Shown: in pieces, positions 1 to 31,058 of the stretch | Layout of the letters: every line of letters begins with the position of its first letter | Numbering within the stretch: the stretch's first letter is position 1 | Translations under genes and position numbers: made by a program | DNA from: Candidatus Moraniibacteriota bacterium | GTDB taxonomy: Bacteria > Patescibacteriota > Minisyncoccia > Moranbacterales > GWC2-37-73 | Assembly: GCA_003510895.1 (NCBI GenBank) | Contig: DOKE01000007.1 | Location: 7,887 to 62,458 of the forward strand | Length of the DNA: 54,572 nt | Reading direction: 5' to 3' | Notes under the pieces: model-generated | The model's database searches: none | Told to the model about the DNA's origin: nothing | Seen by the model: only the letters and a program-made list of their open reading frames with translations

Positions 1-64
1 CCCCCTATTTTATGATTTTTAAATCACAAATATTTTTTTGGTTATTTTTTGAAGAATTGAAAAG

Positions 65-21777: not shown

Positions 21778-22617
21778 CTAGGATTCGGGCTTAAAAGTAT
21801 ATTTTTGAATATATTGCTCTTTGGTTTTTTCTATATCATCTTCGCTAATATAAAATCCTTGTGCGTTAACTGGAGTTTCAACTTCCGGATAAAGTGCTAG
21901 CATTTCTCCATCACCTCGTAATTTTTCAGCACCATTGAAACCAAGAATTATTCTTGAGTCCTCCGCTCTTGCGGTTGCAAAAGCAATTCGATACCGAAAT
22001 GCATCTACCAATTCCTTAGGATAAACTGTCTCTAAAATTTTCGAGGTACCAATCATAATACTAACTCCAGCCAAAGGTCCGGAATTCAAAATTTCCAATA
22101 CAGCTTTTTTGTAAAATTCAAAATCTTCAATCATCAAATCAGAAAACTCATCAATAACAACAACTATCCTAGGAATATTTTCCTTGTTTCTCTTATTGTA
22201 TTCTTCAACTGAAAATGGATAATCTATCTCAGCCAAAACCTTAAAGCGTCTATCTATTTCATCCAAGCACCACTGCAAGGCTTCCTTGGCCTCATCGTAA
22301 GTCACAGCCACTGGAAACATTAGATTTGGCAAATCATTATATGTGCCAATTAATTCTACTCGCTTTGTGTCAATCAAAATAAACTTCAGCTCATCAATTT
22401 CAGTGTTTTTGAGCAAGCTAGCAATAGCGCAATGAAAAAAATTACTCTTTCCTGACCCAGTTTTCCCACCGATAAGAAGATTAAAGGCATTTTCCAAATT
22501 CCCAACAAGATTATGCGTTTCAGTTTCAGCACCAATAGGAATAACGGGCTTGCGTTCATATTCTTTCCAGTCCTTATCCGCATACAATTTTTCTAGACCA
22601 ATGACTTTTTGTTCCAT
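21778..22617 (-). CDS. Stand-alone FtsK/SpoIIIE-type ATPase domain protein (no TM, linker or gamma domain)
   Basis: Walker A GGKTGSGKSN, FtsK-like LIDTKRVELIGTYNDLPNLMFPV, Walker B VVVIDEFSDLM, and C-terminal LRGDGEMLAL...NAQGFYISEDDIE. Only 279 aa. Confidence 0.75.
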   Translation of the reverse strand: MEQKVIGLEKLYADKDWKEYERKPVIPIGAETETHNLVGNLENAFNLLIGGKTGSGKSNFFHCAIASLLKNTEIDELKFILIDTKRVELIGTYNDLPNLMFPVAVTYDEAKEALQWCLDEIDRRFKVLAEIDYPFSVEEYNKRNKENIPRIVVVIDEFSDLMIEDFEFYKKAVLEILNSGPLAGVSIMIGTSKILETVYPKELVDAFRYRIAFATARAEDSRIILGFNGAEKLRGDGEMLALYPEVETPVNAQGFYISEDDIEKTKEQYIQKYTFKPES

Positions 22618-22639
22618 ATATTTATTTTTTTAAATAATT

Positions 22640-24133
22640 TTAAATTGATTTTAATACTCTCCAAATTTCAACCATAGCCAAGGTGTCGAGATGGCAATAA
22701 TCCTTGAGTGCCTGCACTTTCATATTTTTTTCATCTTCAGAATATTCACCTGATACAATACGATTCCAGGTATCTGACGCAGCGCCACCTTCTTGAATAT
22801 GCATATTTTTATACGAAAGATTGGGAACAAGAGCTGGCAAAACATATTTTATTGAAGCACTTCCCTTAAATTCCGGATGATCATACATTGTGGTCTTTCC
22901 AAAAAATGGAACCATTAAATCAATAACTCGATTATTAACATTCTGCATAAAATCTTTGTATTCAGACAAACGCTCTCCCAATTGCTTATTGATGCCTTGC
23001 TCAAATTTCTGATTCCACACAATAATACTGCCCTTTTCAGGAAGATGTTTTTTCAATGCTTCGGCGAAAGATTCATCCGGACAATCTTTTTCTGTATAAA
23101 TAAAATCATAATGCTCCAATTCACTCTCGTGCGAATCAATTACATGTAGCGAAAACTGAAACGGAATTTGCTGATAGGGGCTATATCTATTGTATTTTGG
23201 TATTGCGGATGGATATGTTTCATAATCCAGAAATGCCAGTGGATATTTCATTGCCCCTAGGAATTCTGCAATGCCATCCCTATCAATATATTCTTTGCCA
23301 GACTTGGCTGTTTCCACTTGCCTCTTTTGATTATCTGAAAGCAGAAAATCATCCGGCACATCATGAATATTGAAAATATGACTATCGACTAGCTCAGCCA
23401 ATTTTGTCTTGTGAATTCTTGCAATCGCATGGACAGAGTATTCCGGAAGATCCGAGTTTGAATACCATGAAGTCGTGCAATGTGAATTTTTGCCTTTCAG
23501 AATACAATCACAATGCCCTTTTGGCTCATCCCCGCTAGATAATAATTCATAAGCTCCCTCCATTTTTTGCTTCGTGTCCTTCAATTTTTCATTTACTTGA
23601 TTAGTTAAGTCTTCTATTAAAAACAATTCTTTCAAGTTGATATCGCCCAAGCAAACATATTTCTTATTAAGCCTAATCAAATTTAAAGTTCCCACCTCAA
23701 TACCTAAATCATTTAAAACATTCTTTTGAAAAGCCATATCTATCAAATAATCTTCGGTTTTTCTCCCTCCATTCTCCTCAGAAACTATTGATGACTTCAC
23801 TTCATACAAATCATAAACATTTTGATCTGAATTAAAGACAAAAATATCAGAGACTGCAAGATATTTTTCAGTTGCAAAAACAGGCTGATAAATTACAGGG
23901 GTTCTGTTTTCCATTAGTTTTTTTGTGAGTTCCGTGTCGTCACGAGATTCAACAAGTATGCCATCAGGAAAAAGACTGCGCGCAAGTTCGTCAATCTGGT
24001 TACCGGTATCAATAATATTCAATTCAAAAGAAGAAAGTGCCTTTTGCTTGTATATCTCTGGTTTATGAATTTTTAGCCAAGCATTTTTTGCACAATCGAG
24101 GCATATCAGAAAGTTTGTTTTTGATAATTTCAT
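22640..24133 (-). CDS. DUF2779-family protein: N-terminal PD-(D/E)XK nuclease-like domain plus C-terminal DEDD/RNase H-like exonuclease-like domain
   Basis: N-terminal D...DLYEVKSS motif, a Cys cluster HCDCILKGKNSHC, and C-terminal AFLDYETYPSAIP...PYQQIPFQFSLH...IVWNQKFE...YCHLDTLAMVEIW, which I recognise as the DUF2779 signature. Confidence 0.7.
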   Translation of the reverse strand: MKLSKTNFLICLDCAKNAWLKIHKPEIYKQKALSSFELNIIDTGNQIDELARSLFPDGILVESRDDTELTKKLMENRTPVIYQPVFATEKYLAVSDIFVFNSDQNVYDLYEVKSSIVSEENGGRKTEDYLIDMAFQKNVLNDLGIEVGTLNLIRLNKKYVCLGDINLKELFLIEDLTNQVNEKLKDTKQKMEGAYELLSSGDEPKGHCDCILKGKNSHCTTSWYSNSDLPEYSVHAIARIHKTKLAELVDSHIFNIHDVPDDFLLSDNQKRQVETAKSGKEYIDRDGIAEFLGAMKYPLAFLDYETYPSAIPKYNRYSPYQQIPFQFSLHVIDSHESELEHYDFIYTEKDCPDESFAEALKKHLPEKGSIIVWNQKFEQGINKQLGERLSEYKDFMQNVNNRVIDLMVPFFGKTTMYDHPEFKGSASIKYVLPALVPNLSYKNMHIQEGGAASDTWNRIVSGEYSEDEKNMKVQALKDYCHLDTLAMVEIWRVLKSI

Positions 24134-24198: not shown

Positions 24199-25227
24199 CT
24201 ATTTGAGTTCTTCGTTTTCTTCTTCTGAAATAAGAGGGTCTAGAAAAGAATATACGTCGTCAAAATTGTCAAAATCTGGAAATGGATGCTCTTCTACGGG
24301 ATCACATTGGAGACAAGCGGATGCATGACTGTCGCATGATCTCCTGGGATGCTTCAAAATAAAACTATCGCTTAGTTTATCAAAAATACAATAATGATGA
24401 CTAAAGAACATATCTGACCAAGTTTCTTCTATTTTTTTCCTATCTGAATTATTTATAACTTCAATCTCACTAAGCTCTAAATATTTTGATTTTTTATAAT
24501 TATCTAAAAGTATTTCTTTAGCTTCAACATCTGAAACAGGTGCACTATATCCGAATATGGTTATAATGTATGCCCTACTTAAAACATCTCTTAAGATATT
24601 CCAATTATTTTTTATTACTGGATCAGAATTATAATCTTTTTTACCGATAGGATAAAGTAATTTAGATTTTGATAATTCTTTGTGACAACGATGACATATT
24701 TTGTTATGAAAATTACATAAAATTTTACAATCATAACATATGCCCTCGCCAACATTTCCATGAAGAAATAATAACTTGGGCAATTTATTTTCTCCTATTT
24801 TTTTATGTCGGATATAAGACAATATTAACAAGGGATCCCAATTAAATGTTGCAATATAATCCTTGCCCCTAAGAGATAGGATTAGTTTATCGTAGAGATT
24901 CGGCTTGTCATTGATCTCTATATCACTAAAATAATCCCATATACATTGTTCCAATTCTTTTTCCAAATCCCCATATTCCTCATTATGTATTCGAGAAAAA
25001 AAATCTTCAAAAGATTCATCTTCTTTAATTTTTACTGAGTGTTTTTTGAGTAAATTTTGAACTTCAACTAGACCGCTTAATTCATTCATCGATGGCATTT
25101 TCTTACCATTTGCAGTATTTTTCATGCACGCAATACTTGCACCAGCCCCCAAAATCACTAAATGAGGTGAGTTATTGAAAGTTTTTCCATTTGAAATTTT
25201 AATTCTTGGCAAATGTTGTTTTTGCAT
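24199..25227 (-). CDS. SIR2-like (SIR2_2-type) NAD-binding/NADase-like domain protein
   Basis: Order of motifs LVILGAGASIA (GAGxS), TFNWDPLL (TxNxD), FLHGNV (catalytic His context), Zn ribbon CYDC...CHRC, and IFGYSAPVSD. There is no second recognisable domain. Confidence 0.65.
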   Translation of the reverse strand: MQKQHLPRIKISNGKTFNNSPHLVILGAGASIACMKNTANGKKMPSMNELSGLVEVQNLLKKHSVKIKEDESFEDFFSRIHNEEYGDLEKELEQCIWDYFSDIEINDKPNLYDKLILSLRGKDYIATFNWDPLLILSYIRHKKIGENKLPKLLFLHGNVGEGICYDCKILCNFHNKICHRCHKELSKSKLLYPIGKKDYNSDPVIKNNWNILRDVLSRAYIITIFGYSAPVSDVEAKEILLDNYKKSKYLELSEIEVINNSDRKKIEETWSDMFFSHHYCIFDKLSDSFILKHPRRSCDSHASACLQCDPVEEHPFPDFDNFDDVYSFLDPLISEEENEELK

Positions 25228-25358: not shown

Positions 25359-26462
25359 CTATTTTCCAGATTTTCTTCGATTATCGTCTTTGCATAATAT
25401 CTGGCAATTATTTGCAATAGTTTTTCCACCCTCATGCCAAGGCTTTATATGATCAGCTTCCATTTCTCCTATTTCGAAGTGTTTCATACATTTTACACAC
25501 TTGCCTTTTTGCCTTTCATAAGCTTCTCGCTTCATTTTTTCATTAAATGCCCGAATATTCAGATATCTTTCTTGTCTCGTTAAAACATACGGGTAAATAC
25601 CAGATGGCTTCGTTACTTCCTCATCCTGCATCAATTCCTTGATTTCATCTTCAAGTTTGTCAGCGTCCAGTTTTACATCTTTGAATTGATTATATAATTC
25701 ACCCCATTGCACACTGCCCATTTCTCGGCGATAATTCGTAAAATTTTTTCTAACCCACGCGATTACATTTTGAAAATATTTCCACAATTCATCCGCATTT
25801 TTATCATGCTGGTGCTTTGCCATGTATTCTTCAATCTCGCCATTATTTATCCAAGAAATTGCAGTTTCTAAGTATTCCTGCCTGATAGGTGAGCCTGCTA
25901 CCAAATGTCCGCCATCATTCGCGAGTAAATACGCTGCACAATTTGACTTACTGAATTTCAGCTTTGCATCGGAAAGCCACGAACCAGTATATACAGCATT
26001 TCGTAATTCCTGAGGAAATAATTTTTCACCAGCAATATTGATAATTTTAAACCAATCAAGCTTTTCCTTATCATTTCCTTCGCAATGATAGATCATCAAA
26101 TCGTAATTCAAAATTTGCTCTTGTTCTTCCTGAGTTAAATTATGAAACATTGCAATCCTACCATTAAATTCAATCGAAAAATCTCCATTTACAAATTGTG
26201 CAATACTGATTGTTCGTTGCTGTCCATCAAGCACTTCAAAATTACCATCATCTTTCTTAACCCAATACATAACATTAAGAGGAAAACTATTTTTGATAGT
26301 TCTAATTACTTCATCTCGCTGTTTTCCGCTATACACAAATTCACGTTGATATTTTGGACGAATATCTAATTTACCACCAAAAGCGCTAACACCTTCTTCA
26401 GCGCTATCTTTATAGTCTTTTACAACTTCCGCAATTTTTATCTTATGTAAATCTATTTTCAT
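25359..26462 (-). CDS. DUF262 (ParB/GmrSD N-terminal-like) domain fused to a C-terminal HNH endonuclease
   Basis: RPKYQREFVY and VLDGQQRTISI (DGQQR) motifs. C-terminal CVKC...EADHIKPWHEGGKTIANNCQILCKDDNRRKSGK (HNH with Zn-binding Cys). Confidence 0.85.
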   Translation of the reverse strand: MKIDLHKIKIAEVVKDYKDSAEEGVSAFGGKLDIRPKYQREFVYSGKQRDEVIRTIKNSFPLNVMYWVKKDDGNFEVLDGQQRTISIAQFVNGDFSIEFNGRIAMFHNLTQEEQEQILNYDLMIYHCEGNDKEKLDWFKIINIAGEKLFPQELRNAVYTGSWLSDAKLKFSKSNCAAYLLANDGGHLVAGSPIRQEYLETAISWINNGEIEEYMAKHQHDKNADELWKYFQNVIAWVRKNFTNYRREMGSVQWGELYNQFKDVKLDADKLEDEIKELMQDEEVTKPSGIYPYVLTRQERYLNIRAFNEKMKREAYERQKGKCVKCMKHFEIGEMEADHIKPWHEGGKTIANNCQILCKDDNRRKSGK

Positions 26463-26463
26463 G

Positions 26464-27936
26464 TTATTTTTCTAATAATGTAATTAGTTGTTCAATAGAC
26501 ATTCGAAGCTCATCGTCTGTGTATTTAGTATTATTGTGGTTTTCAGGATGATGAATAATATTTCTGATTTTTGTAGGCAATGTAGTATTGTATTCGATGA
26601 CGGTTTTGTCCGACTTTAAATGTTTATATTTTTGGTCTATCTTGATAGTTTTATTACTTTTATCAAAAAGATATTCATCAAAATCTTTTGACTTACAATA
26701 TTTATCGTCTTCTAAAATAGATTTTGCTTGGATAAAGCCATAAAGTTCGTTGTGGAATTCAACGGATAAAAATCCGAAAGCATAGTAGTTAATCTCACCC
26801 CAAGAAGGGCTCGAGGATCCAAACAGATCGAATTCTTTGCCAGCTTCAACCTTATTCATTCCTAAATCTTTTGAAAATATATTTATTGAATGAGTTTCTT
26901 TTTTATATTTTTTCAATAAATATGGCGAGTGTGTAATTATGAAAATTTGTGAATTGTCGGATATTTTTTCGAGGGCATCAAGTAATTTATTTTGAGCTTG
27001 TGGATGTAAAAAAGTTTCCGGCTCATCAATGAAAAATAATATTGGTTTAGAAGATCCATTTTCATCCGATGAAGAAGAAATATCAGCGTATACTTGAATA
27101 AGTACTAATGCTAAGGCTCGTTGCATCCCCGTACCTTTTTCGGAGCTTTTTGTTTCAATGCCGTTTTCAGATAAAGCAATATTTCCTGTTTTGAAAAAAC
27201 TCTCAATTTCAGGTAATGAAAAACTAAATCTTACTTCTGTCTCCCCGTACTGCTCAGATAAAATACTTTGTATTTTTTGTTCAACTGGCAGTAGGGTTTT
27301 CGCTAAACTATTTTCGCCTTCACCAAAAGTTTCCTTGTGTGAATTTTGAAAGTTTTTCCAGGTCTCAGAAATGATAAAATCTTTCGTTATAGTGTTAATA
27401 ATTTTTCCACTAATTTTTGTTTTCGCAAAATCAGAAATATCACCAGAATTTGTATCAGCCCAAACAAACTGTGCATCAAAAAGTGCAGTAATTGTATTAT
27501 CCATCCCTGTGGGATTTTCAAATTGATTTGTGATTGGGTTAAAAACGCGAACATTTTTAATATCCAGCTTCTTTTTTTTGCCATCTTGTGTAATTTCCGT
27601 TTCTTCGCTAGAACGCACTACTCGCAAACTTTTTTCACCATCTGCATCAATAATATAAGCTTTATATTTTTTCAGTGCATCTATCTTAATAATTGATTCA
27701 ATATCTTCTCCTTTAAACTCAATTTCAACAGAAACAAAGCCGTCTTCTTCACTTTCTGTTTTGGTAATAACTTCACTTCTATCTTTTTTTGTGCGTATAA
27801 AATCAATAGCCTCAAAAACTGATGACTTGCCACAATTATTATCACCGACGAAAAAATTCACGCCTTTGTCAAAAAGAATTTCGTGATCATCTTTAAAGCC
27901 TTTAAAATTATGGAGTTTTATTTTTGAGATATACAT
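26464..27936 (-). CDS. ABC-type/AAA_15-AAA_21-like ATPase (OLD/RecF/SMC-like head) with an unassigned C-terminal domain
   Basis: MYISKIKLHNFKGF start, Walker A GDNNCGKSS, signature-like EKGTGMQRAL, Walker B ILFFIDEPETFLHP, and H-loop IITHSP. The last ~130 aa have no Toprim or other motif I can recognise. Confidence 0.85.
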   Translation of the reverse strand: MYISKIKLHNFKGFKDDHEILFDKGVNFFVGDNNCGKSSVFEAIDFIRTKKDRSEVITKTESEEDGFVSVEIEFKGEDIESIIKIDALKKYKAYIIDADGEKSLRVVRSSEETEITQDGKKKKLDIKNVRVFNPITNQFENPTGMDNTITALFDAQFVWADTNSGDISDFAKTKISGKIINTITKDFIISETWKNFQNSHKETFGEGENSLAKTLLPVEQKIQSILSEQYGETEVRFSFSLPEIESFFKTGNIALSENGIETKSSEKGTGMQRALALVLIQVYADISSSSDENGSSKPILFFIDEPETFLHPQAQNKLLDALEKISDNSQIFIITHSPYLLKKYKKETHSINIFSKDLGMNKVEAGKEFDLFGSSSPSWGEINYYAFGFLSVEFHNELYGFIQAKSILEDDKYCKSKDFDEYLFDKSNKTIKIDQKYKHLKSDKTVIEYNTTLPTKIRNIIHHPENHNNTKYTDDELRMSIEQLITLLEK

Positions 27937-27938
27937 AA

Positions 27939-28997
27939 TTATTTTTGCGGTTTCTTGTTTTTAATTAAAATTCTGAAATAAGGACATTTTCCATTGATAG
28001 ACAAATCTTTTTCATCATTTCCTTTTCTAAATTTTACTATTTCAAATTGAGCAGGATTGTACTTATCTATAAAAGTAATCGGTACGCCCATTACGCCATC
28101 CCAATCCATTGGAATTTCAGCAGTTACATTTATATTTATAGCATCATAATTATCATATTTAGGATATTCTCCAGATGAATATTTCTTATATAAAACTAAA
28201 TCTTCATGACGTTTATCGTAATCAAGATTCGTAAACCATCTTACACCCTTCACTCTAATATATTTATTTCCTTTTTCATCTACTCGTGCTCCCGCCGCTT
28301 CAAGTGGATAATCTTCTGGAACCTGAAACTCACGATCTCCACTATGAATACTCACTCCGAACCACAGCTTATCTGCTTTAACTAGGGGGAATATTTCTTT
28401 ATAAGTAATTGCATTCATATTTCCAAGAATCAAAAACTTTTTATTATATTCAACTAACTGTGCAACATATTCTCTAAAAAGTGAAAAAGGTGGATTGGTT
28501 ACCACAATATCCGCTTGTTTCAAGAGTTCTATACTTTCTTCACTTCTAAAATCTCCATCGCCTTCTAGTGGTGTCCATTCATTATTTTTATTAGCCTTTA
28601 ATTGTTCGGCAATATCACGTAAATCAAATGCACCATCACCATCAAGATCACTAACTTCATTGATAATAAATTTGTTGGCCGTTAATTTTGGACGACCTTT
28701 TGACGTGGTGAGTGTTTTGTCGTCGCCAAATAGTCCAAGCTGGGTATTGGCAATTGGTGATGGCTTGTAACTTGTAGCGATAAGTTTCTTCAAACCTAAA
28801 GCATTGAAATTTGAGGCAAAATACTTAAAAAAATTACTCTCAAACGGATCGTCACAATTGCAATAAACAACCTTACCACGAAATTGTTCTTTATAGTGTT
28901 TTAATTCCTTTTCAATATCAACAAGCTGAGTATAAAACTCGTCTTTTTTTGCCTTGTTGGCTTTATGTAAATTATTATTTAATGACTTACTTGCCAT
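27939..28997 (-). CDS. EcoRI-methylase-family N6-adenine DNA methyltransferase
   Basis: N-terminal KDEFYTQLVDIEKEL...VVYCNCDDPFESNFFKYF and catalytic VVTNPPFSLF ((D/N)PP(Y/F) motif). Confidence 0.8.
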   Translation of the reverse strand: MASKSLNNNLHKANKAKKDEFYTQLVDIEKELKHYKEQFRGKVVYCNCDDPFESNFFKYFASNFNALGLKKLIATSYKPSPIANTQLGLFGDDKTLTTSKGRPKLTANKFIINEVSDLDGDGAFDLRDIAEQLKANKNNEWTPLEGDGDFRSEESIELLKQADIVVTNPPFSLFREYVAQLVEYNKKFLILGNMNAITYKEIFPLVKADKLWFGVSIHSGDREFQVPEDYPLEAAGARVDEKGNKYIRVKGVRWFTNLDYDKRHEDLVLYKKYSSGEYPKYDNYDAININVTAEIPMDWDGVMGVPITFIDKYNPAQFEIVKFRKGNDEKDLSINGKCPYFRILIKNKKPQK

Positions 28998-29195: not shown

Positions 29196-30326
29196 ATGCG
29201 AATTTCATATTCTGCTTTGAACACTTTTCAAACCTGCTCGCTCAAATACAAATTTCAAAATATTGACAAAATAAAAGAGCCGAAATCCAAAGAGGCTGTT
29301 TTTGGAACAATTATTCACTCCACTTTGAATTTTTTTCACACCCCTTCGCTTGTTCCACCTACCACAGAACAGGCGTTGGATTTTTTTTCCAAAGACTGGA
29401 ACAGCGATGTTTTTGAAAATGAATTAGAAGAAAGAGCCGCTTTTTCTCTGGGAGTTTCTATCATTTCCAATTATTGCAGAAAAAATAATCCTTCCGATTT
29501 CAACATTATTGATTTGGAAAGTCGTTTTGAAATTGTCGTTGAAGATGCTGAAACAAAAATAAAGCATATTGTTTCCGGAATTGTGGATAGAATGGACAAA
29601 ACAGAGGATGGTTATGAAATCATAGATTATAAAACCACCAGAAAAATGCCTTCTCAAGAAAAAGTGGAGGAGGACTTACAGCTCTCTGTATACTTAATGG
29701 CTTTTCTTGAACGTTATCCCAAGGAAATTGAAAGATTGGATAAAATAGTAGTAAGTCTTTACTATTTGAAACACGGAGTTAAACTTAGTTCTCAACGAAC
29801 ATTGGAACAACTAAGCAGCGCCAAACAATTATTTTTAGATGTTATTAAGGAAATTGAAAAAGGAATTTTCACTCCCAATGTTAATCCGCTTTGCGATTGG
29901 TGCGGCTATCAAAAAATATGTCCCGCTTGGAAACATAAATTCAAAGAAGAAAGGAAAATAGATACACAAGAAATTAATCAAGCAATTGACGAATATATTT
30001 CCATTAAAAACCAATTAGCCGGAGAAAAAATTAAATTAGGAAAGCTTCAAGAAAAAATTGAACAATATATGCAACAAGAAGGCGTAGAAAGAGTGTTTGG
30101 AGAAAATGGAATTATTGCGCAAACGCTGAGAAAAACCTACAAATATGACGCAAAAACAATTCGTGATATTTTGGAGCCCCTCGGCAAATGGGATAGTGTT
30201 ATCAAAATTGACGCCATTGCTCTCAAAAACACAATGCCGCTTCTTTCTTTATCTGCCAGAAAAGAAATAGAGAATGCAAAAGTTTTAGATAAAGAAAGCA
30301 AGAGTATTTCCGTGAAGAAAAAATAG
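29196..30326 (+). CDS. Cas4/RecB-like PD-(D/E)XK nuclease with a 4-Cys (Fe-S type) cluster and a C-terminal coiled-coil extension
   Basis: C14 near the N-terminus, GTIIHSTL, IVDRMD...YEIIDYKT (D...D/ExK), QLSVYLMAF (QxxxY), and CDWCGYQKIC. There are no cas1/cas2 genes or CRISPR array in the window. Confidence 0.75.
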   Translation: MRISYSALNTFQTCSLKYKFQNIDKIKEPKSKEAVFGTIIHSTLNFFHTPSLVPPTTEQALDFFSKDWNSDVFENELEERAAFSLGVSIISNYCRKNNPSDFNIIDLESRFEIVVEDAETKIKHIVSGIVDRMDKTEDGYEIIDYKTTRKMPSQEKVEEDLQLSVYLMAFLERYPKEIERLDKIVVSLYYLKHGVKLSSQRTLEQLSSAKQLFLDVIKEIEKGIFTPNVNPLCDWCGYQKICPAWKHKFKEERKIDTQEINQAIDEYISIKNQLAGEKIKLGKLQEKIEQYMQQEGVERVFGENGIIAQTLRKTYKYDAKTIRDILEPLGKWDSVIKIDAIALKNTMPLLSLSARKEIENAKVLDKESKSISVKKK

Positions 30327-30329
30327 TGG

Positions 30330-31058
30330 TTAGAATTTCAAAAATTTTTCCCAATATTCATACAGCTTTTTAGTGGCTATCAGATCCCCAACATTATATT
30401 TGGCAATTTCCAGATACTTTTTTTCTTTGAAAAGTTTTCCCACGTCATCGCCTGTCACTCCTTCCGCTTTGGGACTCTTGATTCCAAAGGCGCGCGACCA
30501 AAGATGCAGATTGCCTTTTTTGCGAACCGTGCCATAAAAAGTGAGTTGGTCCAACAAATCAATATGACGCGCTTCTCTGGCGTGCGTGTTTAAATATCTT
30601 TTTCCCACCAAGTTCTTGCTTGATTTTATTTTGTGAATAGCGCTGCGAATCATCAGAAAAGGAACATCGAAAGATCTTCCATTGAAACTTATAAATTCTT
30701 CATAAACTTCGGCAAGTTTCCAAAATCTTTCCAGCATTTCCTTTTCATTCATCGGTTTGAATTTTATTCCATTTTCTTCAAATTCAAGAATGTTTTCATT
30801 AAGAGATTGAAAATACACAGCCCCTCTTTCTTTTTCAACGTCATAGACTCCAATAGCCACAACTTCTCCAGTCAGAGGAGAAAAACCCAAGCGATTTTTC
30901 ACGTCAGAAAGCGCTTGTTGATATTGGATTTCATTTTCTGATTCTTTCTTTATCCAACGTGTCAAACTATCCTGAGTTGTTTCGTCCAGACTATCAAAAT
31001 TTTCTCCAATTGTCTCAATATCAAAAACCAGTTTTTTTGCCATACCCGTTTTCTGCAT
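30330..31058 (-). CDS. Predicted 3'-5' exonuclease related to the PolB exonuclease domain (RNase H fold, DEDDy)
   Basis: Exo motifs VFDIETIG, ISFNGRSFDVPFL, HIDLLD and YNVGDLIAT. Confidence 0.7.
   Translation of the reverse strand: MQKTGMAKKLVFDIETIGENFDSLDETTQDSLTRWIKKESENEIQYQQALSDVKNRLGFSPLTGEVVAIGVYDVEKERGAVYFQSLNENILEFEENGIKFKPMNEKEMLERFWKLAEVYEEFISFNGRSFDVPFLMIRSAIHKIKSSKNLVGKRYLNTHAREARHIDLLDQLTFYGTVRKKGNLHLWSRAFGIKSPKAEGVTGDDVGKLFKEKKYLEIAKYNVGDLIATKKLYEYWEKFLKF

Follow-up and report, generated by a model that had tools for sequence, protein, structure and literature searches.

Do three defence-type genes that follow one another within a few nucleotides form one defence system, or have separate elements come to share an operon? 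The question is raised by a cassette on the minus strand of a 54,572-nucleotide (nt) stretch of DNA from a Candidatus Moraniibacteriota bacterium (GenBank assembly GCA_003510895.1, contig DOKE01000007.1, positions 7,887 to 62,458), called here the window. Its proteins are identical to those of "uncultured bacterium ACD_11C00020", and their nearest relatives are found in Moraniibacteriota and other members of the candidate phyla radiation (CPR)/Patescibacteria. Three open reading frames (ORFs) were called in the cassette, in the order of a DNA methyltransferase of 352 amino acids (aa) (27939..28997), an ATP-binding cassette (ABC) ATPase of 490 aa (26464..27936) and a nuclease of 367 aa with DUF262 and HNH domains (25359..26462). 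The original prediction took them for one integrated system. We propose instead, with a probability of about 0.6, that the locus consists of two modules in one operon: a type II-like restriction-modification (R-M) pair formed by the outer genes (module A), and a single-gene ABC-ATPase/effector embedded between them (module B), which would be an analogue of PrrC. The modular architecture as such we hold to be highly probable.

Gene layout and junctions

Both junctions were read directly from the sequence. Two nucleotides (27937..27938, '...AAATAA tt ATGTAT') separate the methyltransferase stop from the ATPase start, and a single one (26463, '...AAATAA c ATGAAA') separates the ATPase stop from the nuclease start. 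ORF calls and junction sequences thus bear out that there are three intact minus-strand ORFs in tight coupling, as first described; every motif quoted at that time was found again in the translations, and all three domain assignments were recovered by profile searches (Pfam, PADLOC). No minus-strand terminator-like site was seen inside the cassette, in a terminator scan that did no better than with shuffled controls, and this absence is consistent with a single transcript. A promoter scan was no better than on shuffled sequence either.

Spacers of 2 and 1 nt imply co-expression, which is one argument for an integrated three-component system. In such a system, the methyltransferase would self-mark, and the ATPase would sense or translocate and control the DUF262-HNH protein as effector, in a Septu- or Menshen-like arrangement supplied with a dedicated methylase.

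The outer genes as an R-M pair

The methyltransferase carries the DEFYT and NPPF motifs, and matches the Pfam EcoRI_methylase family (E 8.6e-149, covering 1-344 of 345) as well as the PADLOC MTase_II model (7.8e-138, full length). These matches identify it as a predicted EcoRI-family, gamma-class (NPPF) N6-adenine DNA methyltransferase, which would be the protective half of an R-M pair. The nuclease is made of an N-terminal DUF262/ParB-like domain (Pfam GmrSD_N/DUF262, 3.3e-16, aa 34-158, with DGQQR), a helical part in the middle and, C-terminally, a classical HNH domain (PF01844, 7.6e-11, aa 322-365, with ADHIKPWHEGG...NNCQILCKDDNRRK). PADLOC places it in a type II restriction endonuclease (REase) family (REase_II, PDLC03418, 7.3e-132, covering 1-367 of 372), for which no name of a characterised REase emerged from the literature searched.

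Relatives of the nuclease are abundant: at least 8000 were found at E<=1e-5, the best 120 of which are 78-100% identical. We fetched 80 genome loci anchored on nucleases 72-95% identical to that of the window, among which 78 were informative, upstream DNA being present. They belong to many CPR lineages, with some bins labelled Omnitrophota, Elusimicrobiota and others. Every one of the 78 informative loci had a same-strand methyltransferase homolog directly upstream of the nuclease. In 49 of them no more than 9 nt, and in 43 precisely 1 nt, lie between its stop and the nuclease start. Plasmids of Macrococcoides, Aeromonas, Variovorax, Gordonia, Enterococcus, Chryseobacterium and others are annotated with this pair, which in its plasmid-borne form spans Bacillota, Pseudomonadota, Actinomycetota and Bacteroidota. 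The features by which a type II R-M system is recognised, namely a methyltransferase with NPPF, an adjacent and co-conserved endonuclease gene, and the membership of this endonuclease in a PADLOC type II family, were all found. Judged from their sequences, the methyltransferase and the DUF262-HNH nuclease make up a widespread two-gene, type II-like R-M cassette.

This result alters the picture initially drawn of the locus in several respects. It had been said to fit no canonical R-M layout; in fact its outer genes match the PADLOC type II models over their full length, which amounts to the canonical two-gene layout plus an insert. The idea that self-marking by N6-methyladenine (m6A) is combined with an HNH effector gains support, as the behaviour of methyltransferase and nuclease is that of cognate R-M partners. 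Finally, it had seemed paradoxical that a DUF262 nuclease, if dependent on modification, should be linked to a methyltransferase. The paradox dissolves, because the obligate linkage between the two genes indicates a nuclease that would be blocked by methylation like a classical REase, unlike the modification-dependent GmrSD, BrxU and SspE. Membership in this type IV group was rejected: the DUF262 N-terminal domain is present in the nuclease, but no GmrSD_C/DUF1524 match was obtained with Pfam, the C-terminus being a classical HNH, and a cognate m6A methyltransferase is linked to the nuclease in every informative locus.

Palindrome avoidance yielded no recognition site that could be linked to this R-M family. 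Over the whole window (1-54572), CATG was found 36 times versus 121 expected (observed/expected (O/E) 0.30, z -7.7), GGCC had an O/E of 0.41, and GATC and TATA were mildly avoided. In pooled loci carrying the same R-M family, neither CATG (O/E 0.85) nor AATT-type sites were avoided; CATG is therefore not the site of this cassette. As for the avoidance of CATG and GGCC in the window, other R-M systems with such sites may act on this genome.

A slot for accessory genes between methyltransferase and nuclease

The 1-nt spacer between ATPase and nuclease in the window is also the modal methyltransferase-nuclease spacer in unoccupied cassettes, and the 2-nt spacer on the other side of the ATPase is the upstream edge of the inserted gene. 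No relative of the ATPase was found between methyltransferase and nuclease in any of the 78 nuclease-anchored loci. In 29 of these, cargo of another kind, 352-1610 nt long and on the same strand, fills the junction: RhuM (1e-97), Fic/DOC (5.5e-16), T5orf172/MUG113, a trypsin-like peptidase (Trypsin_2, 1.6e-15), a Bro-N-like protein, several predicted membrane proteins, some of them small, and unknown proteins of 247-301 aa. Examples, with loci given by number, are L003:6980-7999, L025:6836-7999, L011:7388-7993 and L017:7157-7978. From its gene content, the 1-nt methyltransferase/nuclease junction is a putative hotspot for accessory genes. RhuM, Fic and HEPN genes nested in R-M operons have already been reported, and their repertoire is the same as here (PMC3710099, Anantharaman et al. 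2013). For accessory genes embedded in defence systems, the term 'guilt by embedding' has been used, and 7 of 9 were validated as defences (Payne et al. 2024, preprint).

These counts speak against the integrated three-component system, since the nuclease goes with a methyltransferase in every locus of the set and with an ATPase in none, and since unrelated cargo occupies the slot in more than a third of the cassettes.

Sequence divergence on the two sides of the junction was also compared. The nuclease is better conserved than the methyltransferase, with a median aa identity to the window of 79% versus 64% (L001-L080, Spearman rho 0.56), a difference that is partly a selection artefact as the loci were picked by nuclease similarity. 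In usual type II pairs the pattern is the opposite, the nuclease being the less conserved partner. In L001-L003, nucleases 89-95% identical to that of the window are accompanied by methyltransferases only 65-71% identical (95% and 71%, respectively, in L001), and each of the three loci carries a different cargo. The divergent methyltransferases and the differing cargo therefore suggest that recombination may take place at the junction.

The ATPase gene in R-M loci of every type

A second set of loci was anchored on the ATPase. From metagenomes, 80 loci with ATPases 45-91% identical to that of the window were fetched; 77 were analysable, and their neighbours were clustered and the clusters annotated. 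The largest group (30 of 77) had the ATPase inside a type I locus, typically in the order HsdM-[ATPase]-HsdS-HsdR, where the ATPase stop codon overlaps the hsdS start (ATGA). The gene followed a type III Mod-Res pair in 15 loci, lay in an EcoRI-methyltransferase cassette in 5, followed a 1400-aa Eco57I/ResIII fusion (IIG-like) in 4 and preceded a GmrSD protein in 2. No R-M neighbour was recognised in the other 21, many of which are on short contigs. Altogether, an R-M gene was present within two genes of the ATPase in 56 of the 77 loci.

The copies closest to the window ATPase are type-I-embedded (87% identity at the nt level, about 90% at the aa level). DNA similarity to these copies starts ~7 nt before the ATG and stops ~8 nt before the stop codon, and is thus confined to the ORF. 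As the limits of DNA homology match those of the ORF, the moving unit is essentially the ATPase ORF. Homologs of 34-40% identity stand alone between insertion sequence (IS) elements, on L. helveticus pLH1 and on a Klebsiella IncFIB plasmid; the family is common in CPR/Patescibacteria, and is found in Lactobacillus and Klebsiella on these plasmids. As read from these contexts, the ATPase is an autonomous mobile unit that preferentially embeds in R-M loci of every type. Its adjacency to the methyltransferase and nuclease genes is, by the same reading, not a matter of chance, and would represent the recurrent embedding of accessory genes in R-M operons. A phage origin of the ATPase was rejected: the sole IMG/VR match (16,488 nt, sample 3300014656) probably corresponds to L095, a type I context, with which it shares length and coordinate span at 81% identity.

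Some of these loci are in favour of the integrated three-component system. The methyltransferase-ATPase-nuclease order is identical in L109, and is found with extra genes before a 36-37%-identical DUF262-HNH protein in L098 and L117. Pairs of ATPase and GmrSD exist (L137, L141, L143), PADLOC gives weak matches to NsnA/NsnB and PtuA/PtuB, and OLD-ABC/HNH dyads have been described in the literature. However, the cassette accounts for 5 of 77 ATPase loci, most of the others being type I or III loci with no HNH or DUF262 partner, and the ATPase also lives alone on plasmids. The PtuA match reaches 65 bits for an NCBIfam cut-off of 500, and relative to Menshen the DUF3696 tail and NsnC are lacking and the gene order is opposite. 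Checked across loci, the three-gene order is not co-conserved, an outcome that had been named beforehand as counting against a single system. We conclude that one integrated three-gene system is improbable.

Two side observations were made in the ATPase-anchored loci. In L137, L141 and L143, the ATPase belongs to a subclade of ~52-53% identity and is followed, 5-17 nt apart, by a 586-593-aa DUF262+DUF1524 protein; this subclade possibly represents a two-gene arrangement in its own right. A protein with DUF2130 (417-478 aa, Pfam 6.6e-89) trails the type I hsdR gene in L088, L094, L095, L106 and L121, and shares the methyltransferase/nuclease slot with the ATPase in L117 (2669-4105) and L118, where it lies between the ATPase and the DUF262-HNH gene. 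Its gene neighbours mark it as another predicted R-M-linked accessory gene.

An OLD-like head joined to an unmatched domain

The ATPase matches Pfam AAA_15 (2e-33), AAA_21 (1.2e-25) and SMC_N, and its translation contains the motifs GDNNCGKSS, EKGTGMQRAL, ILFFIDEPETFLHP and ITHSP. In an alignment with 47 homologs, residues G31, N33, N34, G36 and K37 of the Walker A motif or P-loop (GDNNCGKS, aa 31-38, 27823..27846, minus strand) are invariant, as are the signature GTGMQR, the Walker B DEPE and the H-loop THSP. The head occupies aa 1-~345. It matches the PADLOC Old model (5.3e-50) over positions 2-340 of the 578-position model alone, with further PADLOC matches to AriA, GajA and PtuA. A PDB sequence search with the ATPase retrieved Rad50, PtuA, retron ATPases, OLD (6p74) and GajA, and Foldseek with the head retrieved Rad50, SMC, GajA and PtuA. 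Motifs and matches agree in identifying the predicted head as a complete OLD/Rad50-like ABC head. Compared with OLD and GajA, the OLD-type head is therefore present, but no Toprim was found in the C-terminus, the Old match ending at 340 of 578. A Toprim fold for the C-terminal domain was also rejected on its secondary structure, which is helical with one hairpin, and on its lack of matches.

The C-terminal domain (aa 346-490, 26467..26901, minus strand), helical with one beta-hairpin, is the predicted effector. At first reading, no motif could be placed in the C-terminal ~130 aa of the ATPase, and this has held. The domain had no Pfam match, also when 38 diverse members were searched at E<=10, and no PHROG or PADLOC match. 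A PDB profile search gave nothing usable, alpha-catenin alone appearing at E 0.86, and a structure search with Foldseek against PDB and BFVD returned no match (best E 0.67 and 0.17, respectively). The domain is nevertheless widespread, occurring in at least 492 clusters at 50% identity in a whole-library search. Among the matches listed, it is C-terminal, mostly in proteins of ~450-500 aa, with AAA_15 in 10 of 10 checked. An AlphaFold2 model built from a diverse alignment is confident (predicted local distance difference test 93, predicted template modelling score 0.86) and delimits a domain of ~110 aa. In this model, two strands continuing from the head are followed by helix 1, helix 2, an insert made of a helical part and the beta-hairpin, helix 3 and helix 4.

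Conserved residues are E381 in helix 1, the segment E-F-H395-N-E397-L-Y-G in helix 2, and R458-N-x-I-H462-H463-P-E-N466 where helix 3 ends, and on into the loop before helix 4. R458, H462, H463, P464 and N466 are invariant in close homologs, and R458 and the second histidine, H463, are still invariant in a set of 34-61% identity; overall, E397, R458 and H463 never vary, and H395 and H462 hardly do. These residues are polar and catalytic in type. The RNIIHH sequence (aa 458-463, 26548..26565, minus strand), at the end of the third core helix, forms an R-N-x-x-H-H(-P-E-N) motif and is a candidate Rx4H site.

This arrangement resembles that of HEPN ribonucleases (RNases). HEPN domains are described as four-helix bundles, often with inserts between helices 2 and 3, with the arginine of the motif directly followed by a polar residue (N, D or H), and with a conserved acidic residue in helix 2 (PMC3710099). 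R458-N-I-I-H-H463 reads as RNxxxH, at a position that agrees with this description, and the C-terminal domain fits all the points listed from it, including the acidic residue (E397 in helix 2) and the insert between helices 2 and 3. The assignment, which rests on motif and modelled topology, suggests that the domain may be a HEPN-like RNase acting as a back-up; we put this forward tentatively, at somewhat less than even odds. Homology was rejected as a support for HEPN, as Pfam, PADLOC, PHROGs, the PDB profile search and Foldseek gave nothing usable. A His-Me finger, which the beta-hairpin followed by a helix could have evoked, was rejected too, the hairpin having no conserved His or Asn. HEPN RNases are generally dimers with a composite active site. 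An ABC head that dimerises upon ATP binding offers a natural switch.

Conservation of these residues also bears on whether the ATPase could be a generic helper that boosts or regulates the adjoining restriction nuclease, its C-terminal domain being a docking or DNA-binding tail like the DUF3696 of NsnB or the C-terminus of PtuA, with a role for instance in sensing DNA ends made by restriction. The proximity of R-M genes in most ATPase loci and the translational coupling inside type I operons would be accounted for, the binding of partner effectors by the tails of ABC ATPases is documented for Menshen, Septu and PARIS (PMC12065111), and no nuclease fold was detected in the domain with Foldseek in PDB or BFVD. 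The partners, on the other hand, have unrelated structures (HsdM/S/R, type III Res, IIG fusions, GmrSD, DUF262-HNH), which makes one conserved docking surface unlikely, and the invariant residues (R, H, H, E and N of RNxxHHPEN and EFHNE) are of catalytic type and do not form a hydrophobic interface. Moreover, stand-alone plasmid copies exist, and most genomes have the R-M cassette without the ATPase. A helper role is thus unlikely.

Could the ATPase gene then be a selfish or neutral hitchhiker with no role in defence, exploiting R-M operons, which are addictive and mobile? Its gene-sized homology boundaries and its presence at many unrelated loci and between IS elements would be expected in that case. 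Against it stands the strong purifying conservation of both the ATPase catalytic motifs and the C-terminal motif across the 492 clusters. No transposase or integrase is associated with the gene, and repeats are not evident at the junctions, although no repeat search was made. Its closest relatives by sequence and fold (OLD, GajA, PtuA, AriA) are defence ATPases, and most of the embedded genes examined by Payne et al. proved to be defences. We regard a mere hitchhiker as quite improbable.

A putative sensor-effector embedded in an R-M operon

Our preferred reading, two modules in one operon, would work as follows. In module A, given the families of the two proteins and the linkage of their genes, the EcoRI-family methyltransferase would mark host DNA by m6A, and the DUF262-HNH nuclease would cut unmarked incoming DNA. 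The DGQQR ParB-like domain of the nuclease probably provides DNA-dependent or nucleoside triphosphate (NTP)-dependent control, by analogy with GmrSD and BrxU. Module B, the ATPase, would be an independently mobile, gene-sized insert in the methyltransferase/nuclease junction and a self-contained sensor-effector, whose OLD-like ABC head carries the new ~110-aa domain in the place of Toprim. Co-transcribed with module A, it would remain inactive until its heads, prompted by an infection cue, engage in an ATP-dependent manner. Head dimerisation would then join two C-terminal domains into a HEPN-type, metal-independent RNase site (R458/H463 with E397), and RNA cleavage would shut down translation and arrest the cell, in the manner of PrrC and RloC. 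The cue could plausibly be an anti-restriction protein, as for PARIS and Gabija, or aberrant DNA or DNA ends, as for RloC and Old. Since the family adjoins five unrelated R-M architectures and also stands alone, the cue is more likely to be generic than to consist in contact with one restriction enzyme. There is a precedent for such an association in PrrC and RloC, in which an ABC head is combined with a HEPN domain in a protein embedded in, or linked to, an R-M system (PMC3710099).

Several points weigh against this proposal. The C-terminal domain has no profile or fold match to HEPN or to any nuclease (Pfam, PADLOC, PHROG, PDB, Foldseek), and methylation, cleavage and defence are predicted from sequence. 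PrrC needs a specific partner R-M enzyme, whereas the ATPase family adjoins five R-M types; an autonomous trigger is therefore favoured over a physical leash of the PrrC kind. Finally, at least three diverged methyltransferase/DUF262-HNH lineages (L098, L109, L117/118) have the ATPase in this slot, and it adjoins GmrSD in L137, L141 and L143, so that a weak preference of the ATPase, or a functional affinity, for DUF262 nucleases is possible.

A bolder version would make the ATPase/C-terminal-domain family an undescribed, widespread, single-gene abortive-infection system, in which Toprim has been swapped for a new nuclease domain and which spreads into R-M junctions as a second line. We consider it conceivable, though rather less probable than its contrary. 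The C-terminal domain would then represent a HEPN that has diverged very far, or else a new fold. If this were true, the family would serve all major R-M types as a universal second line, called upon once restriction has been evaded, and the 1-nt methyltransferase/nuclease junction would be a so far overlooked hotspot where defence and toxin genes settle in ultra-small bacteria, in which most other immune systems are lacking.

What the locus teaches first is that three translationally coupled defence-type genes need not form one system, as comparative context separates an R-M pair from an embedded passenger. Taken alone, the R-M pair is of routine interest until its specificity is known. Its DUF262-HNH REase looks better conserved than the methylase, in a comparison biased by the choice of loci through the nuclease. 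The ATPase draws attention to an uncharacterised, confidently folded, predicted effector domain, carried by an OLD-type ABC ATPase into restriction loci of types I, II, III, IIG and IV. Should this domain be an RNase or an abortive effector, it would extend the PrrC principle beyond type Ic systems and E. coli. The repertoire of defences in CPR is otherwise thought to be sparse. Guilt by embedding appears to hold there even for minimal two-gene, type II-like cassettes, which are thus a place to look for new toxins and defence genes.

Neighbouring genes

Downstream of the nuclease, at a distance of 131 nt, lies an ORF of 342 aa (24199-25227, minus strand). It has no Pfam or NCBIfam match and a weak PADLOC match to SIR2 (E 0.0017, in the N-terminal GAGAS region), and is absent from the 80 related nuclease loci. 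From these data, it is possibly another variable, defence-related gene. The cassette is further flanked by DNA-processing genes, at 21778-24133 (minus strand) and 29196-31058 of the window. They encode an FtsK/SpoIIIE-like ATPase (279 aa, resembling the C-terminus of SspH as well as mad8), a DUF2779 protein (497 aa, 84% identical in L001), a divergent PD-(D/E)XK Cas4-like nuclease with a DUF7376 tail, and a PolB-exonuclease-like protein of RNase H fold. The region around the cassette may be a defence or repair island.

Comparison with known systems

The locus was compared with several described systems. Septu was rejected, in agreement with the original prediction, which had set the locus apart from two-gene Septu: the NCBIfam PtuA score is 65.3 bits versus the cut-off of 500, PADLOC PtuA matches (1e-18 to 1e-15) are far weaker than Old (5e-50), the PtuB match (1.5e-4) covers ~40 aa, and an HNH neighbour is absent from most ATPase loci. 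Menshen consists of NsnA (DUF262 + ParBDB), NsnB (OLD-ABC/DUF3696) and NsnC, in this order (PMC12065111). The window resembles it in having a DUF262 protein and an OLD-type ABC ATPase, with weak PADLOC matches to NsnA (1.5e-25, DUF262 region alone) and NsnB (1.7e-16), but the gene order is reversed, and the DUF262 protein has its own HNH and is linked to the methyltransferase, not to the ATPase. Menshen was rejected, there being no third effector gene, no NsnC match for the downstream 342-aa ORF, and no DUF3696 in either the whole ATPase or its C-terminal domain. MADS was rejected as well, with MAD3 at 42.8 bits versus an NCBIfam cut-off of 420 and weak PADLOC mad3 and mad8 matches alone.

The OLD family (P2 Old, GajA, HEC-04) and the related pairs (PARIS, Septu, HEC-01..03) are the closest to the ATPase by its head. 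In these, too, the nuclease, whether fused or a partner, answers to an ABC sensor, and the systems are often embedded in other defence systems. The ATPase differs from them by a helical domain in place of Toprim, and by having no separate partner effector gene conserved beside it.

With PrrC and RloC, anticodon nucleases that lie latent until an anti-restriction factor or DNA damage activates them to cut tRNA, the ATPase shares the build of a single polypeptide, an N-terminal ABC regulatory head followed by a small C-terminal effector domain, here predicted. Its gene is likewise nested and translationally coupled in an R-M operon, type II-like in the window and type I in most relatives, and the R-M embedding typical of PrrC and RloC was found in the window and in the 56 related loci counted above. 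PrrC and RloC end in a HEPN RNase domain with a catalytic Rx4-6H; the motif and modelled topology of the ATPase C-terminus (Rx4H where helix 3 ends, an acidic residue in helix 2) would be consistent with such a domain. The differences are that the head is AAA_15/OLD-like, with no match to AAA_13, which we take to be the ATPase family of PrrC and RloC, nor to PrrC or RloC themselves (among Pfam matches and top PADLOC matches), and that neither profile nor structure searches matched the C-terminal domain to HEPN. The ATPase gene of type I loci lies between hsdM and hsdS, and not, as prrC does, between hsdS and hsdR. Finally, its presence beside five R-M types and on its own makes a specific leash, like that between EcoprrI and PrrC, unlikely.

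Module A resembles classical two-gene type II R-M systems by its methyltransferase gene placed directly upstream of the nuclease gene, with a 1-nt spacer in most loci, by its PADLOC type II matches, and by being plasmid-borne and moving horizontally across phyla. It differs from them in that its REase is GmrSD-like (DUF262/ParB-like + HNH), not PD-(D/E)XK, and may be NTP-dependent, and in that the methyltransferase/nuclease junction is here an accessory-gene hotspot.

The nested accessory genes, with the same cargo repertoire (RhuM, Fic/DOC, ABC ATPases), are those of the embedded defence genes already described (Payne et al. 2024; Anantharaman et al. 2013). Their host differs, being here a minimal two-gene, type II-like cassette and not a type I, BREX or Hma system, and so does the slot, which is a 1-nt junction; in addition, neither PADLOC v2 nor NCBIfam has a model dedicated to the ATPase/C-terminal-domain family. 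What is of a known kind is therefore the R-M pair, for which classifier models exist, and the R-M-embedded ABC-ATPase effectors, with PrrC and the HEC systems as literature precedents. What appears to be new is the joining of an OLD-like head to an unmatched family of C-terminal domains, the promiscuous embedding of this ATPase across R-M types, and the 1-nt cargo slot between methyltransferase and nuclease genes in CPR bacteria.

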